64,000 nucleotides of DNA from positions 64,001-128,000 of the forward strand of contig CABMCB010000071.1 in the NCBI GenBank assembly GCA_902384455.1, in the 5' to 3' direction. This DNA is from an uncultured archaeon. Its GTDB lineage: Archaea; Altiarchaeota; Altiarchaeia; IMC4; SCGC-AAA252-I15. Below, one piece after another: positions 20,405 to 29,388 of the stretch. A model generated the notes under the pieces. It did no database searches and had not been told where the DNA came from. It saw only the letters and a list, made by a program, of their open reading frames with translations. A program made the position numbers and the translations under genes. Positions within the stretch are counted from its first letter, which is position 1. Each line of letters starts with the position of its first letter.

Positions 20405-20490
20405 GCCGAGGTGGCGGAGTTCGGACTAACGCGCGAGCCTGGAAAGCTCGTCTCCGAAAGGAGGCTTGGGTTCAAATCCCAACCTCGGCG
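20405..20490 (+). tRNA. tRNA-Ser(GGA)
   Basis: Acceptor GCCGAGG/CCTCGGC, anticodon arm CGAGC-CTGGAAA-GCTCG, long variable arm, T arm TTGGG-TTCAAAT-CCCAA, discriminator G; no encoded CCA. Confidence 0.96.
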
Positions 20491-20576: not shown

Positions 20577-20661
20577 GCCGAGGTGGCGGAATCCGGCTAT
20601 CGCGCACGCCTCGAAAGCGTGTTCCCACAAGGGAGTTTGGGTTCAAATCCCAACCTCGGCG
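20577..20661 (+). tRNA. tRNA-Ser(CGA)
   Basis: Acceptor GCCGAGG/CCTCGGC, anticodon arm CACGC-CTCGAAA-GCGTG, long variable arm TTCCC-ACAA-GGGAG, TTCAAAT T loop. Confidence 0.96.
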
Positions 20662-20779: not shown

Positions 20780-21940
20780 TCAGATTGCTTTGACGATTGC
20801 GTCTTCGACTTTCTCCCCGATGACCTTGTTTGCTCTGTCTTCAGCCGCGAACTTCACCTTATCCAAAAGTCCCGGATAAGCCCTCGTATACTGCTCCTGG
20901 CAAAACCCTTTAGTCTCCTCATTTTTTATCCCGTCGCACATCGAGATGTTTTTGGCGGCTACCGCTACTTTGGACACGCAGCCGTCCGTGTCGTAAGGCA
21001 TAGACCTGCATTTCTGCGGGTCCTTCCACGCCACTGCGACATCTTCGATGCAGGAAACAGTGTTTGAGATGTCTTTAGTGCAATACAGCTCGTTCCCTCC
21101 GTTCATGGCGACTCCTGCGTAACATTTCTGCTGGTAGCCGTGGAGCTGGTCTGCCGAAAGTTTTGCGCAAATCTCAGGGTTAATTGAATTTATTCCGACT
21201 TCAGTCAAGCATTCATCCGTTCTGTCGCCGGTCATATTACATGCGGAAGCGTCCTTACCGTTGGCCGCTATGCAGAAGGTTCGGCTTTTTTCGTCGGTTA
21301 TTTTTTTGCATACGTCCGGGTCTTTTTTGCTTACGCCGACTTCCGTGTTGCAGTCGTCTCTAATCGAGATGTTGTTAACCTTGTCGCATTGGGTTGAGTC
21401 TCTGAGTGTCTTGCCTAATTCGACTTGGCAGTTCGTTTTCGTCTCCTCGTCGTTTACTATCTTATCGCATGCTTCCGTGCTGTTGCTGTATTTAGCAAAT
21501 CTTTCAAGGCAAAAATTCTTGGAGCCTGAATCGCTCAATTTCTCGCAAGTACTGACGTCATTTCCCGTTTGGGCGATTCCGAGGTAGCACCTAGATTTTT
21601 CAGTTTCATCCGATATCATGTCGCAGTATGTGGTGTCGCCACCTCTTTGAGCGAACTTATAGAAGCATGATTCCCGCGCCTTGTCTCCCTTGATGAGGGC
21701 GCACTTCTGCGGGTCGGTCACGGCCAGAGCAACGGCGTTGTAGCAATCCTGTTTCGCCTTATCTGTCGTCTGCTGCTCGCATATAGTCGGATCGCCCTTC
21801 TGCTTCGCATCATCGGTTATGGGGTCAGAATCGCCGAAAAGGCAGCCGGAAGAAAACACAAGCAAAACTACTGCGGTCAGCAAAACGAGCAAAAACACAG
21901 TTCCATACTCCCCACGAGATTTAATGGAGCACTTACTCAT
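20780..21940 (-). CDS. Secreted/lipoprotein-like Cys-repeat protein
   Basis: Hydrophobic leader ending SSGC; about 12 repeats of about 26 aa, D/NxxxCxxIxxxxxxxxCxxxxAxxxx. Confidence 0.85.
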   Translation of the reverse strand: MSKCSIKSRGEYGTVFLLVLLTAVVLLVFSSGCLFGDSDPITDDAKQKGDPTICEQQTTDKAKQDCYNAVALAVTDPQKCALIKGDKARESCFYKFAQRGGDTTYCDMISDETEKSRCYLGIAQTGNDVSTCEKLSDSGSKNFCLERFAKYSNSTEACDKIVNDEETKTNCQVELGKTLRDSTQCDKVNNISIRDDCNTEVGVSKKDPDVCKKITDEKSRTFCIAANGKDASACNMTGDRTDECLTEVGINSINPEICAKLSADQLHGYQQKCYAGVAMNGGNELYCTKDISNTVSCIEDVAVAWKDPQKCRSMPYDTDGCVSKVAVAAKNISMCDGIKNEETKGFCQEQYTRAYPGLLDKVKFAAEDRANKVIGEKVEDAIVKAI

Positions 21941-21999: not shown

Positions 22000-22206
22000 C
22001 TATCTCAGCCTTTCGTTCAGCAAGACGACTATCGCCTCTACCTGAAGCGGCTCAAGGTAAGGGCATTTATCTACGCCCTTAATGTCAGTGAACTCGTCAG
22101 AAAGAAACAACGCGAAGTCTTTACAAAGTTTAACCCCGCACTCCCCGCAGTCTCTGAGAGGCAGGTTCTTGTAAATCTTCATCGCCAAGACCGGGTCTGT
22201 CGCCAT
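22000..22206 (-). CDS. Small Fe-S-binding protein (stand-alone domain like the RnfB/CdhE N-terminus)
   Basis: IYKNLPLRDCGECGVKLCKDFA...KCPYL. Start taken at ATG 22206 (MATDPV), 68 aa. Confidence 0.8.
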   Translation of the reverse strand: MATDPVLAMKIYKNLPLRDCGECGVKLCKDFALFLSDEFTDIKGVDKCPYLEPLQVEAIVVLLNERLR

Positions 22207-22215
22207 TTTAGGTGT

Positions 22216-22375
22216 TGGTGTTCTGCGCCGGGTTGGGTTACAGTCACCCCATCCGGAGTTCATCACTCCCCCGGGAACCTTTTGGGTTCGGTCTTGCAAG
22301 AGCCTATATCCAGCGCAGTGTCGCCCCCCATTTGCGTTCCACATCATTAAATCAGCGGACTCTTCGCAGGCGGGC
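22216..22375 (-). ncRNA. Putative two-motif box H/ACA-type small RNA
   Basis: Hairpin 1: GCCCGCC/GGGGGGC, internal loop, UCCGC/GUGGA, K-loop CUGA-UUUA-AUGAUG, then G-ACA. Hairpin 2: CUGCGCUGG/CCGGCGCAG, then A-ACA-CCA. TTTAATTA box at 22406-22399. Confidence 0.6.
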
Positions 22376-22489
22376 TTACTTAAGATACGGCAAGAAGCTA
22401 ATTAAACAAACGACCGACCCCGGATTCTTCGTCCAACAACGTTAAAGGCCGTTCCCCTCTTTTAAGCCCGTTTTGGTAATCCTTGACGT

Positions 22490-23137
22490 ATGGGCCGTCG
22501 GACGGTAATTGTATGCGCGGGAGATGGTGTTGACCCGGGTTTTCTCCGGAGCTTCCTGCAAAAAGGCGACGTAGTCTATGCTGTAGATGGAGGGGCAGAC
22601 TACGCGCTCAAAGCGGGCATAATGCCCTGCTGCGTAATCGGGGATTTGGATTCGGTAAGCCCTGGTGCTCTTAGGGAATTCAAGTCTAAGGGAGTGCGCG
22701 TTCTGAAGAAGCCCGACCAGGAGAAAACCGACGCGGAATGCGCCGTGGAAAAAGCCCTCTCAGACGGTGCAGACGAAATCGTCCTCGTATGCGCTTTAGG
22801 CGGAAGAATAGACCATGAACTCGCCAACATACTTCTTGCGGCGTCGCTGACTGTGCCTGCGCGCATAATCGACGAGAAGACCGAGATCCAGGCGATCCAT
22901 TCAAAGGCAACCTTAGAGGGCGAAATCGGCGACACAGTCACAATACTCCCCCTAACGCAAGCAGCCGAAGGAATAACCCTCAAAGGATTCAAATACGAAA
23001 TGGAAAACGGCACTTTACCGTTCGGCTCGACCAAAGGCGTGTCCAACGTCCTAAATAAGAAGAAGGCAGTAATTTCAGTCACAGACGGCGTCATACTTGT
23101 CATCAAAACGAAAGGCGGAAAAAATGAAACAAAATAA
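22490..23137 (+). CDS. thiN: Thiamine diphosphokinase
   Basis: AVDGGA, IGDLDS, DQEKTD, GGRIDH, GVSN. Confidence 0.92.
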   Translation: MGRRTVIVCAGDGVDPGFLRSFLQKGDVVYAVDGGADYALKAGIMPCCVIGDLDSVSPGALREFKSKGVRVLKKPDQEKTDAECAVEKALSDGADEIVLVCALGGRIDHELANILLAASLTVPARIIDEKTEIQAIHSKATLEGEIGDTVTILPLTQAAEGITLKGFKYEMENGTLPFGSTKGVSNVLNKKKAVISVTDGVILVIKTKGGKNETK

Positions 23138-24173
23138 ACCCGAGTACTTGGTTGCTGCAATGGCTTTCACAGTTTTTGTCGCATTATGCCTAAACGGCGG
23201 CGAAACAAACAATACTCCCCCAAATTTGACTGCAAAGCCTACGCTAACAGTCTACACATACGACAGCTTCAACGCAGAATGGGGACCTGGCCCAAAAGTA
23301 TTCCCAATATTCGAATCCCAATGCAACTGTAAAGTCAACGTCATAACAGCAGGAGACACAGGCCAAGTACTGAACCGATTAATCTTGGAGAAGGACAATC
23401 CCAAGGCCGACGTCGTAGTGGGTATTGATAATAGTTTCCTTTCTAAGGCGCTTTCTGCCGGAATACTTGTTCCGTATTCTTCCAGAAACATCGAGAAAGT
23501 GCCTCAGCGCTTGCGCTTCGACTCAACAGGCAGCCTGACTCCTTATGATTACGGCTACGTCACATTCGTCTACGACAGCAGCAAAATAAGTCCGCCTAAT
23601 TCACTGCTGGACCTGCTTGATCCGAAGTACTCTAAAAAGTTTATTCTAGAGGACCCTAGGACTTCGAGTCCCGGCCTTATCTTTTTCATGCAGACTGTTC
23701 AGGCGTTGGGCGAAGACAAAGCATGGGTTTACTGGCGGAACCTGAGCAAGCAGGCGCTGGCGATCGCTCCAAGCTGGGACGAAGCTCAGACGCTTTTTTC
23801 CTCCGGCGAAGCCCCGATGTACTTAAGTTACGCCACAAGCCCAAGCTACTACGTTGAATACGAAAACAAGACCAATTTCCTCGCAGTAGATTTCTCAGAG
23901 GGGCTGTTGGAGCAGGTTGAAGGCTCCGGAATAGTTAAAGGGACTAGGAATGTAGAACTTGCTCAATCCTTCATAGACTTCACGTTGACTCCTGAATTCC
24001 AGAATGAACTCCCTCAGACGCAATGGATGTTTCCCGTGCTGCCTGACGCAAAAATACCTGAAAGCTTCAGTTACGCGGTCAAACCCAATAAAACGCTGAC
24101 GTTAAACACTAATCTAACCAGCGAAGACACCCAACGATGGCTTGCCCAATGGGAAGACGCAGTCAAAGCCTGA
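23124..24173 (+). CDS. thiB: Thiamine ABC transporter substrate-binding protein
   Basis: LTVYTYDSF..EWGPGP, PYDYGY, DPRTSSPG, SYATSP, QWMFPV. Start at ATG 23124. Confidence 0.92.
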   Translation: MKQNKPEYLVAAMAFTVFVALCLNGGETNNTPPNLTAKPTLTVYTYDSFNAEWGPGPKVFPIFESQCNCKVNVITAGDTGQVLNRLILEKDNPKADVVVGIDNSFLSKALSAGILVPYSSRNIEKVPQRLRFDSTGSLTPYDYGYVTFVYDSSKISPPNSLLDLLDPKYSKKFILEDPRTSSPGLIFFMQTVQALGEDKAWVYWRNLSKQALAIAPSWDEAQTLFSSGEAPMYLSYATSPSYYVEYENKTNFLAVDFSEGLLEQVEGSGIVKGTRNVELAQSFIDFTLTPEFQNELPQTQWMFPVLPDAKIPESFSYAVKPNKTLTLNTNLTSEDTQRWLAQWEDAVKA

Positions 24174-25744
24174 TAAACGCATCGCCCGCAATACTACTTC
24201 TGACTGCGGGACTGCTCATACCGCTTCTTGCAGTCCTACGCCTAACTTCCACGCTAACAGCGCAAAAAGCCGTTGAAATAATAGCGGGAAACTCCGACGC
24301 AATATTCTACACAATAATACAGGCAACAGCATCCACAATAGGGGCATTAGCGTTAGGGATACCTGCCGCATACCTGCTTGCCCGCCGCAGACTCCCGTTC
24401 CACAACGTAATCCGGGCGGCGACGCTCACGCCATTCGTAGTCCCAAGCATACTGGTCTCGCTCTCATTCGCGCTCTTCTTCGGAAACAACGGACTACTAA
24501 ACCGTGCACTAATGAGCGCGTTAAACCTCACGTCCCCCCCTCTGCCGATACTGTACGGATTCTGGACCATAATACTCGCCCACACAGTCTACAACTTCCC
24601 GGCAGTCGCGCGATTCGTCTCAGACAGCTGGGAACGCGCAGACGCCTCAACGCAAGAAGCAGCGGAAACACTCGGAGCCAGCAAATGGACTATATTCAGA
24701 AAAATAACATTCCCCCACATCAAAGGAAGTCTACTATCAATAAGCGTCCTAGTCTTCACATACTGCGCACTAAGCTTCGCCATACCCCTAACACTCGGAG
24801 GCATAAAATACGGGACAATCGAAGTAGCCATATACCAGACAGTAACACGCGACCTAAACCCCGCAGCAGGAGCACTACTAAGCCTACTACAGGCAGCATT
24901 CCTAATAGCATTCTCAACGCTAACCCTCTCCACGCAAAGAACACTAACATTCACAGGAAAAACAAACTACCGAGAAAAACTCCCACTCAAAATAAACCGC
25001 AACAACATATGGGTCATACCATACGCACTACTCATAACCCTAATAACACTCGGCCCCGCAGCATCAGTAATAGCATACTCACTCACAGCCAACAACGGCC
25101 AACCAACGCTCACATGGTACCAACAAATAATCGGACTAACACCCCAAAGCGCAATAGGCGCCGGCGGCCTCATAGCAATAAGAAACACACTGCTCATAGG
25201 AATATCCGCGGCAACATTGGCTGTAATAGCCGGATTCAGTTTGGCCGTAGCCCGCAAAACACATCCTACTTTGGCTAGAACCATAACTTATGCGCCGGTC
25301 GCATTCTCCACAGTCACGTTAGGCTTGGGTTTCCTGCTCACATACCCCACAGGACGCTGGTGGACCATCGCATTCGCCCACGCCGTAATAGCCCTACCAT
25401 TCACAGCCCGCATACTCACCCACGCGCTCGAAAACCTGCCGCCAGCATACGCTGAAGCAGCCGAAACGCTGGGGGCAAACCGCAAGCTATTGGCGCGAAA
25501 AATAACGCTACCTCTTCTTACCCCCTCCGTAATAACAGCCGGAAGCTTCGCCTTCGCAGTATCCGCAGGAGAACTCGCCGCAGTATCACTACTGTCCGAC
25601 GGCGCATGGCCGACTATGCCAGTCTACATATACAGGTTTCTCGCCAGCCGCCAACCCCACGGCGCAGCAGCAATGGGCGTAACACTCGCCCTTATTACCC
25701 TCGCGGCATTAATCGTCATAGAGAAAGCAGACAACAAAAAATGA
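24137..25744 (+). CDS. thiP: Thiamine ABC transporter permease
   Basis: Two EAA motifs (EAAETLGA), AHTVYNFP, 12 predicted TM helices; exact start uncertain. Confidence 0.88.
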   Translation: MACPMGRRSQSLINASPAILLLTAGLLIPLLAVLRLTSTLTAQKAVEIIAGNSDAIFYTIIQATASTIGALALGIPAAYLLARRRLPFHNVIRAATLTPFVVPSILVSLSFALFFGNNGLLNRALMSALNLTSPPLPILYGFWTIILAHTVYNFPAVARFVSDSWERADASTQEAAETLGASKWTIFRKITFPHIKGSLLSISVLVFTYCALSFAIPLTLGGIKYGTIEVAIYQTVTRDLNPAAGALLSLLQAAFLIAFSTLTLSTQRTLTFTGKTNYREKLPLKINRNNIWVIPYALLITLITLGPAASVIAYSLTANNGQPTLTWYQQIIGLTPQSAIGAGGLIAIRNTLLIGISAATLAVIAGFSLAVARKTHPTLARTITYAPVAFSTVTLGLGFLLTYPTGRWWTIAFAHAVIALPFTARILTHALENLPPAYAEAAETLGANRKLLARKITLPLLTPSVITAGSFAFAVSAGELAAVSLLSDGAWPTMPVYIYRFLASRQPHGAAAMGVTLALITLAALIVIEKADNKK

Positions 25745-29314: not shown

Positions 29315-29388
29315 GCCCGCGTGGGGTAGCTTGGATATCCTAGGAGCTTGCGGAGCTTCGGACCTGGGTTCGAATCCCAGCGCGGGCA
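29315..29388 (+). tRNA. tRNA-Arg(GCG)
   Basis: Acceptor GCCCGCG/CGCGGGC, anticodon arm GGAGC-TTGCGGA-GCTTC, T arm CTGGG-TTCGAAT-CCCAG; CTTAAATA box upstream. Confidence 0.96.

Follow-up and report, generated by a model that had tools for sequence, protein, structure and literature searches.

The minus strand of a 64,000-nucleotide stretch of an uncultured archaeal genome (the window; contig CABMCB010000071.1 of assembly GCA_902384455.1, Altiarchaeota) carries, at positions 22375–22219, a genuine small RNA gene that had not been annotated. We consider it very probable that the product is a two-motif H/ACA RNA of about 160 nucleotides (nt), a distant relative of the Pyrococcus RNA Pab40/HgcG, that would guide modification of U2496 and of U2554 or U2555 (Escherichia coli numbering) in 23S ribosomal RNA (rRNA) and whose second motif, domain 2, bears an insert. 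Judged by sequence comparison, the RNA most likely steers Cbf5 to pseudouridylate two uridines in the catalytic centre of the large rRNA. An original prediction, made from the letters of the window alone, had described the element as a Cbf5/L7Ae guide RNA, a reading that holds up in every sequence-level test run here: covariation, kink-loop (K-loop) and kink-turn (K-turn) elements, ACA boxes, rRNA complementarity, the response of the Rfam family HgcG, and genes for Cbf5, Nop10 and L7Ae.

Each of the two domains combines a lower stem (P1), a pocket, an upper stem (P2), a K-loop or K-turn and an ACA box, laid out as follows; the last line describes the open reading frame (ORF) downstream.

22399–22406, minus strand: TATA-like box TTTAATTA, read directly, 23 nt upstream of the first stem base at 22375.
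22319–22375, minus strand: hairpin 1, a complete H/ACA motif by covariation, motif conservation and alignment to motif 1 of Rfam HgcG.
22375–22369 and 22329–22323, minus strand: P1 of hairpin 1, GCCCGCC/GGGGGGC, with one G·G mismatch.
22368–22360 and 22337–22330, minus strand: pocket strands of hairpin 1, UGCGAAGAG and ACGCAAAU, in part self-complementary (UGCG/CGCA).
22367–22362 and 22335–22332, minus strand: guide cores of hairpin 1, 5′ GCGAAG and 3′ GCAA.
22359–22355 and 22342–22338, minus strand: P2 of hairpin 1, UCCGC/GUGGA.
22354–22352 (UGA) and 22345–22344 (GA), minus strand: K-loop of hairpin 1, C-UGA-UUUAAU-GA-U-G, in the form of a box D′/C′-type K-loop.
22321–22319, minus strand: first ACA (G-ACA from 22322).
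22311–22318, minus strand: 5′ strand of domain 2 P1, CUGCGCUG(G), pairing with (C)CGGCGCAG at 22230–22223.
22300–22310, minus strand: 5′ pocket strand of domain 2, GAUAUAGGCUC, with guide core GGC, predicted to pair with CGCC/GCC of the 23S A-loop.
22290–22299, minus strand: 5′ strand of domain 2 P2, UUGCA (22299–22295), then A, the non-bulged K-turn strand GA (22293–22292) and the C-stem CC (22291–22290).
22275–22289, minus strand: variable sub-hairpin GAACC-CAAAA-GGUUC of the insert above the K-turn, from single-sequence folding.
22253–22274, minus strand: conserved accessory hairpin with the box-C-like loop AGUGAUG (22267–22261).
22238–22250, minus strand: bulged K-turn strand of domain 2, with C-stem GG (22250–22249), bulge GGU (22248–22246), GA (22245–22244) and C, then the 3′ strand of P2, UGUAA (22242–22238).
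22231–22237, minus strand: 3′ pocket strand of domain 2, CCCAACC; CAACCC is predicted to pair with GGGUUG of the A-loop.
22223–22230, minus strand: 3′ strand of domain 2 P1, CGGCGCAG, followed by A, the second ACA (22221–22219) and 3 further nt.
22000–22206, minus strand: downstream small ORF of 68 amino acids, not part of the RNA, with a weak iron–sulphur (Fe-S) domain (PF04060, 19.5 bits against a cut-off of 23).

All elements named in the original prediction are found in their stated places. The TATA-like box lies at 22406–22399, 23 nt before P1; P1, pocket, P2 and K-loop of hairpin 1 all sit where they had been drawn, the G·G mismatch in P1 having gone unmentioned; and the long stem of domain 2 (22318–22311/22230–22223) is followed, as described, by N-ACA (here A-ACA, 22221–22219) and 3 nt. 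Folded as a single sequence, the minus strand outscores most of its shuffles (z = −2.26), with 5 out of 200 doing as well; the plus strand is no better than shuffles (z = −0.23).

The strongest evidence for a structured RNA comes from relatives. Pieces of it were found by blastn in 12 of 61 related genomes, and a covariance model built from 12 sequences and a hand-drawn structure gave exactly one full-length match in 39 of the 49 genomes of the same order, including matches in 12 of its 13 high-quality genomes. The same model matched none of 12 genomes from the phylum's two other families, and a laxer search of five sister-family genomes returned only one 15-bit match, inside apparent coding sequence. 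Scanning the genome contigs with a pattern for the conserved 3′ end produced at least 122 stretches, nearly all of them chance matches in bacteria; three archaeal loci among them were tested with the model and one matched. Because stems were out of register in the raw MAFFT alignment, from which RNAalifold recovered the structure only partly, pairs were counted in a 39-sequence alignment realigned with the model. Standard pairs fill 91.1% of its cells (74.5% in shuffles), compensatory changes on both sides occur in 23 of 31 modelled pairs with up to six pair types per position, and the covariation score is 0.495 against 0.189, a value that none of 500 shuffles reaches and that drops to at most 0.116 when the 3′ partners are slid by 1–3 columns. 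The stems of both domains (helices 1–5) are 79–100% paired, with compensatory changes in 18 of 25 pairs; the weakest helix, at 63%, is the 2-bp distal stem of the domain 2 K-turn. As the original prediction required, the RNA is conserved in relatives, its K-loop and ACA boxes are kept and its stems covary.

The same comparison speaks to whether the region is simply coding. A mechanical ORF listing contains both a minus-strand ORF of 115 amino acids (22000–22347), which would make the region an N-terminal extension, and a plus-strand ORF at 22212–22445. The only domain signal of the 115-residue frame lies at residues 62–82, after Met48, which places the true start codon at 22206; what the substitutions among relatives keep is base pairing, not codons, and the element occurs in unrelated gene neighbourhoods. 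We regard the chance that the region codes for protein as practically negligible.

Hairpin 1 reads as a canonical, textbook archaeal H/ACA motif. Its stems P1 and P2 (helices 1–3) are 79–93% paired, with compensatory changes in 11 of 12 pairs. All 39 copies have the 5′ guide core GCGAAG, which stands 8 nt from the 5′ GA of the K-loop in all 36 copies that could be parsed; the matching distance on the 3′ side is also 8 positions in 27 of those 36. A loose K-loop pattern fits 39/39 copies, with the 3′ GA reading GG by eye in two relatives (L151 and L154). The ACA box preceding domain 2 is found in 38/39 copies; counted from the start of the 3′ guide core, it lies 14–16 nt away in 32/36. In this genome the box is where it had been predicted, at 14 nt from the first target-pairing guide base rather than the 16 nt first given. 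Active Pyrococcus motifs described by Muller et al. (PMC2377435) carry an ANA at 14–15 nt and a K-turn above 5–6 bp, and the ACA spacing of both domains here fits the archaeal 14–15-nt rule stated in that paper.

Domain 2 likewise reads as an H/ACA motif, one with a lineage-specific branched insert on the distal stem of its K-turn. Comparison brings out a core that is hidden in the single-sequence fold, namely the upper stem UUGCA/UGUAA and the K-turn. P1 is paired in 100% of 38 sequences and three of its eight pairs covary, six copies having UUGCGGUG/CACCGCAA instead of CUGCGCUG/CAGCGCAG. The 5-bp P2 is 96% paired with four of five pairs covarying (UUGCA/UGUAA here; UUGUA/UACAA and CCUGCG/CGCAGG elsewhere). 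The non-bulged K-turn strand N-GA-CC has its GA in 36/39 copies, this genome's row having been read by eye, and the bulged strand GG-NNU-GA-N is intact in 33 of 37 parsed copies, with U as the third bulge base in 37/37. In the pocket, the 5′ strand contains GGCG or GGC[CU] in all relatives read, and the 3′ strand (A)CCAACCC keeps CAACC in 38/39. The ACA is present in 37/39 copies (of the two misses, one copy ends early and one reads UCA) and lies 15 nt from the C of CAACC in 37/38, 14 nt in this genome.

Above the K-turn, the insert of this genome consists of a variable hairpin (22289–22275), whose presence, length and sequence differ among relatives and which is absent in several, and a conserved one (22274–22253). 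One family of relatives has a third insert hairpin, and one relative (G021) has no insert at all, a plain 15-nt K-loop standing in its place. The four sub-hairpins first drawn in domain 2 are therefore real features of the single-sequence fold that are not all conserved, and the description of the domain as far more branched than a standard motif applies to the part distal to the K-turn; the core, from P1 through pocket, 5-bp P2 and K-turn to ACA, is standard. We propose that the distal stem would have gained its branched insert, with the AGUGAUG hairpin, in this archaeal order. The junction between the domains also varies: in one relative (G003, L002:226–461) about 55 extra nt separate the first ACA from domain 2, forming two plain hairpins with neither pocket nor K-turn and no third motif.

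Because the assembly of this genome contains no 23S rRNA, targets were sought in 12 relatives that have both the RNA and the rRNA. Every rRNA U was scored for contiguous pairing of its flanks to both pocket strands, each guide against the 23S of its own genome, allowing small offsets at the top of the pocket and 1–2 unpaired bases after the U. For hairpin 1 the top-ranking site in 12/12 genomes is GCUUGC-U-A-CUUCGC (scores 8–12; in G001 tied at 8.0 with another site), with 6+4 and up to 5+7 bp around the U. For domain 2 the A-loop site GGGUUG-U-U-CGCC ranks first in 7/12, at the first U in five (6+4 bp) and at the second U in two (7+3 bp); it is second in two genomes, third in two and sixth in one, and in these five the pairing is 6+3 bp, for the most part with a third base left unpaired. 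A score of at least 8 in every one of the 12 genomes is reached at these two sites alone. Any other site occurs in at most two genomes, and those that recur are confined to one genus; another strong site for domain 2, near the 5′ end of 23S and seen in two genomes of one genus, was set aside as lineage-specific or chance. Adding the 16S rRNA of three genomes left the top sites unchanged and gave none better.

Aligned to an annotated E. coli 23S copy of 2,902 nt, the targets fall at 2494 and 2552. From the landmarks A2451 in GAUAAC and Um2552–G2553 in the A-loop, we take that copy to run 2 nt behind standard numbering, which puts the targets at 2496 (a C in E. coli) and U2554. The predicted target of hairpin 1 is thus U2496 of the peptidyl-transferase ring, at the base of helix 89; that of domain 2 lies 58 nt further downstream in the A-loop (helix 92), at U2554 or, for some relatives, at U2555.

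The domain 2 assignment is the less secure of the two. It is conceivable that only hairpin 1 guides and that domain 2 is a non-catalytic H/ACA-like module binding proteins and the A-loop region, or serves another target; variants of this idea make it a folding chaperone, an assembly clamp or a servant of tRNA or some other RNA. The short A-loop pairing (6+4, or 6+3 with a third unpaired base), the first rank in only 7 of 12 genomes and the degraded K-turn of seven copies would all suit such a module, as would the precedent of Pab40 motif 2, which Muller et al. (PMC2377435) characterise as weak and structurally ambiguous. Set against this are the near-invariant 15-nt ACA spacing (37/38 copies), the covariation of P1 and P2, the conserved guide cores (CAACC in 38/39; GGCG or GGCY throughout) and the standing of the A-loop as the sole domain 2 site scoring at least 8 in every genome. 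We hold a non-guiding domain 2 to be improbable and favour two guiding motifs.

Besides the missing 23S rRNA, several observations weigh against a two-target guide RNA. The domain 2 of this genome pairs with the A-loop by only 5–6 + 3 bp and leaves three target bases unpaired; its unusual 5′ guide, AUAGGC, belongs to a weaker class in which GGC is one base nearer P2, and in the relatives with the same guide type (G026, G027, G028 and G024) the A-loop site ranks only second to sixth. The active Pab19 motif also has a three-base gap (PMC2377435). The non-bulged GA of the K-turn is AA in three copies, and the bulged-strand GA has decayed to GG in four, all of one genus. In one relative (G009, L177:1501–1680), UCA replaces both ACA boxes. 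Of the expected partner genes, a Gar1-like ORF is weak (24.3 bits, below the Pfam cut-off of 29.3), and this genome has no T-run between the RNA and the next ORF. Finally, the alignment used for pair counts was fitted to the model and so favours the structure; even so, an effect this large, with so many pair types per position, is more than relatedness alone would give. Relative G009 also carries a 10-nt A/U spacer between its two domains, with all other features kept.

The 23S rRNAs themselves show further peculiarities. In relative G007 (L018, around 2500–2520) and the 13 other 23S sequences displayed, the segment reads CUUCGCUGUCGG (CUUCGCCGUCGG in G023) against CCUCGAUGUCGG in E. coli; this type of reading is found in every displayed 23S of the order and in two of a sister family. 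It puts a C at the position of the near-universal A2503. Nearby, further changes put U at 2496 and 2499, and the hairpin 1 guide pairs with the C at 2503. The 23S of relative G014 (L206) is about 350 nt longer and diverges just before the A-loop into a U/A-rich stretch, perhaps an intron or an insertion. That genome, which is 78% complete, yielded no copy of the guide RNA.

At Rfam gathering thresholds nothing matches at the RNA, and only three tRNAs are reported elsewhere in the window. A permissive search of 4,227 families returned HgcG as the sole H/ACA family and sole significant match (19.3 bits, E = 0.0021); the one other row, a eukaryotic long non-coding RNA family (12.6 bits, E = 0.59), we take as chance. 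Among 13 relatives, five match HgcG at 28.4–37.1 bits and the other eight have no match at E up to 1. The family that the original prediction had suggested consulting thus responds, below its gathering threshold. By score (19.3–37 bits against a gathering score of 77) and by motif number (two instead of three, the model positions of motif 3 being deleted in the alignments), the RNA falls outside RF00064 as defined.

The likeness to Pab40/HgcG of Pyrococcus, and with it to Pf7, Pho40 and Afu4 of Archaeoglobus, is nevertheless specific. Hairpin 1 aligns column for column to motif 1, guide on guide (GCGAAG/GCAA here, consensus GcGAgG/GCGA) and with the same 8-position spacing to the K-loop GA. 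Domain 2 aligns to motif 2 over P1 and the AACCC of the 3′ guide, and motif 2, like domain 2, has an extra stem-loop; its fold is ambiguous. The RNAs differ in that motif 3, the helix 69 guide, is missing here, in that the extra structure sits above the K-turn here and in the 5′ guide strand there, and in the predicted target of domain 2, here the A-loop. Pab40 motif 1 guides Ψ2588 in 23S of Pyrococcus abyssi, established by carbodiimide (CMCT) mapping and in vitro reconstitution (PMC2377435, Table 1), a position called highly conserved in eukaryotic rRNA in the same paper. By the numbering offset, P. abyssi 2588 would be E. coli 2496, and this together with the guide-on-guide alignment makes hairpin 1 most likely orthologous to motif 1 of Pab40, Pf7 and Afu4; the whole RNA is best called a distant two-motif relative of Pab40/HgcG/Pf7/Afu4. 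For motif 2, Muller et al. report activity of Pab40 at 1932 and a proposal of P. abyssi 2678 for Afu4/Pf7, and mention an earlier proposal of the equivalent of P. abyssi 2647 for Afu4 (PMC2377435). The offset of 92, which also puts P. abyssi 2697/2698 on E. coli 2605/2606, would bring the 2647 equivalent next to the A-loop site.

Both predicted targets seem to have eukaryotic counterparts. Yeast 25S rRNA carries Ψ2865, made by snR46, and Um2921, Gm2922 and Ψ2923, the last made by snR10; the two pseudouridines are 58 nt apart, the spacing of the targets predicted here (listed in PMC5699541). By numbering rather than by alignment to yeast, we infer that our targets correspond to the positions of Ψ2865 and Ψ2923. 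The yeast guides differ in being eukaryotic and separate from each other, in having both H and ACA boxes and in lacking a K-turn. Um2921 and Gm2922, just before Ψ2923, we take to be the Um2552/G2553 pair of the E. coli A-loop. Motif by motif, the architecture is also that of the single-hairpin guides Pf9/Afu46 and Pab91, with 5–6 bp to the K-turn and 14–15 nt to ANA (PMC2377435). Those guides have a plain loop or short stem above the K-turn, unlike the distal stem here, a three-way junction (four-way in one family of relatives) with its conserved hairpin.

The genome encodes the proteins that such an RNA would need: Cbf5 (441 bits, cut-off 238), Nop10 (57.3 bits, cut-off 27.2) and two L7Ae-family proteins (87.9 and 49.9 bits, above cut-off). 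By analogy with the solved Pyrococcus particle, L7Ae would bind each motif at its K-loop or K-turn, and Cbf5–Nop10–Gar1 would bind its lower stem and ACA box. The strands of the internal loop would pair with 23S on either side of one uridine, which Cbf5 would isomerise to pseudouridine.

The most distinctive part of the insert is the accessory hairpin. Its AGUGAUG loop is kept in 37/39 copies, the exceptions being the insert-free G021 and a copy that a contig end cuts short; the stem is 86% paired, and three of four modelled pairs covary. The GUGAUGA singled out in the original prediction is thus the loop of the one conserved hairpin of the insert and not the K-turn of the motif. Other roles for the loop were tried and dropped. 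As a K-loop the hairpin is doubtful on K-turn geometry, the GA dinucleotides lying 2 bases apart with flanks unpaired in that register. Pairing of AGUGAUG(C) with a GCAUC of 23S between the two targets was rejected when genomes with CAUUCCAUCC in the rRNA proved to keep the same loop. A recurrent module was rejected as well: this genome has 196 AGUGAUG sites, a closing stem of 4 bp or more is found at 14 of them, and not one of these looks like the hairpin or sits in a similar RNA. Elsewhere, on the plus strand of contig C72 of G000 (around 47096), an intergenic-looking stretch contains GAGAAGUGAUGUUUUUCUGAUUU, with a box C-like GUGAUG and then CUGA close by; it may be part of a box C/D small RNA.

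A box C/D reading was also weighed for domain 2 itself, which would then combine an H/ACA motif with half a box C/D guide, AGUGAUG(A) serving as box C and the downstream GUGA as box D. In this genome the loop does fit the box C consensus RUGAUGA, with 12 nt to GUGA, and RNAs joining H/ACA and C/D elements are described in Pyrococcus (Pab21; PMC2377435). The length of the spacer between the boxes ranges from 9 to 25 nt across the relatives, a variability on which the reading was rejected, and part of the spacer is paired within the hairpin stem; no terminal stem can form between the box flanks, and GUGA already belongs to the bulged K-turn strand, next to a P2 that covaries. A composite guide is in our view very unlikely.

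Within the H/ACA reading, the hairpin could offer a second L7Ae or some other protein a place to dock, or make a tertiary or substrate contact. Since it is retained in the four copies without the bulged-strand GA, it may substitute for a decayed K-turn, and a protein-binding role is worth testing. A bolder proposal takes the hairpin as a new functional module of the H/ACA particle and the RNA as both folding clamp and modifier of the peptidyl-transferase centre: two guides 58 nt apart would bracket helices 90–92, clamping as well as modifying. Such a double role is proposed for the yeast RNA snR10. We consider this joint proposal for the archaeal RNA on balance unlikely.

Signals around the RNA suggest a gene of its own. 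A TATA-like motif, sought with a simple A/T-rich pattern, occurs 27–41 nt upstream of P1 in 21/38 relatives and in 6/38 in a control window; the 21 is a lower bound, the pattern having missed this genome's own box. A run of at least four T follows within 40 nt downstream in 25/36 relatives, where A runs occur in 13/36. One might still suspect a cis-acting 5′ leader, a riboswitch or protein-binding regulator of the small Fe-S gene, whose ATG at 22206 comes 12 nt beyond the second ACA without an intervening T-run; in five relatives, too, the next ORF starts within 11–30 nt. The downstream gene changes among relatives, being acidic ribosomal protein P1 at 10 of 29 loci, the RNase P protein Pop5 at five and others elsewhere, as with the small Fe-S ORF here, which rules out a gene-specific leader. 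With the T-runs of the relatives, the lack of any riboswitch family match in Rfam and an anatomy that is that of a trans-acting guide, we judge a leader extremely unlikely. The guide RNA may, in this genome and at the Pop5 loci, where no T-run is seen, be cut from the 5′ end of an mRNA.

To our knowledge, H/ACA guide RNAs are catalogued in only a few cultured archaea. The RNA described here, which escapes Rfam at gathering thresholds, would extend them to a whole uncultured order, in 39 of whose 49 genomes the covariance model now finds the gene. A literature search turned up no paper in which both Altiarchaeota and pseudouridine are mentioned, and among the matches listed for H/ACA terms none contained 'Altiarchae'. 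All this suggests a genuine, previously unannotated family of H/ACA guide RNAs with an unexplained accessory hairpin, a hairpin whose role is open to reconstitution tests. The family predicts that two pseudouridines of eukaryotic ribosomes, at the yeast Ψ2865 and Ψ2923 positions, are RNA-guided here too, by a single RNA. It also offers natural variants for study, among them a plain K-loop in one relative, decayed K-turns and UCA in place of ACA.

The neighbourhood adds a few details. The divergent neighbours on the plus strand (22490–25744) encode a thiamine pyrophosphokinase (PF04263/PF04265), a solute-binding protein and a long ABC permease. Because of this thiamine pyrophosphokinase and ABC transporter, a thiamine pyrophosphate riboswitch was considered; it was dropped, as Rfam gave no match, the 115-nt spacer included. 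On the minus strand, 20780–21940 encodes a repetitive, cysteine-rich, secreted-looking protein of 386 amino acids without a Pfam match. Two tRNA genes on the plus strand (20405–20490 and 20577–20661) are long, at 85–86 nt, and lie 90 nt apart, and a third tRNA is found at 29315–29388.

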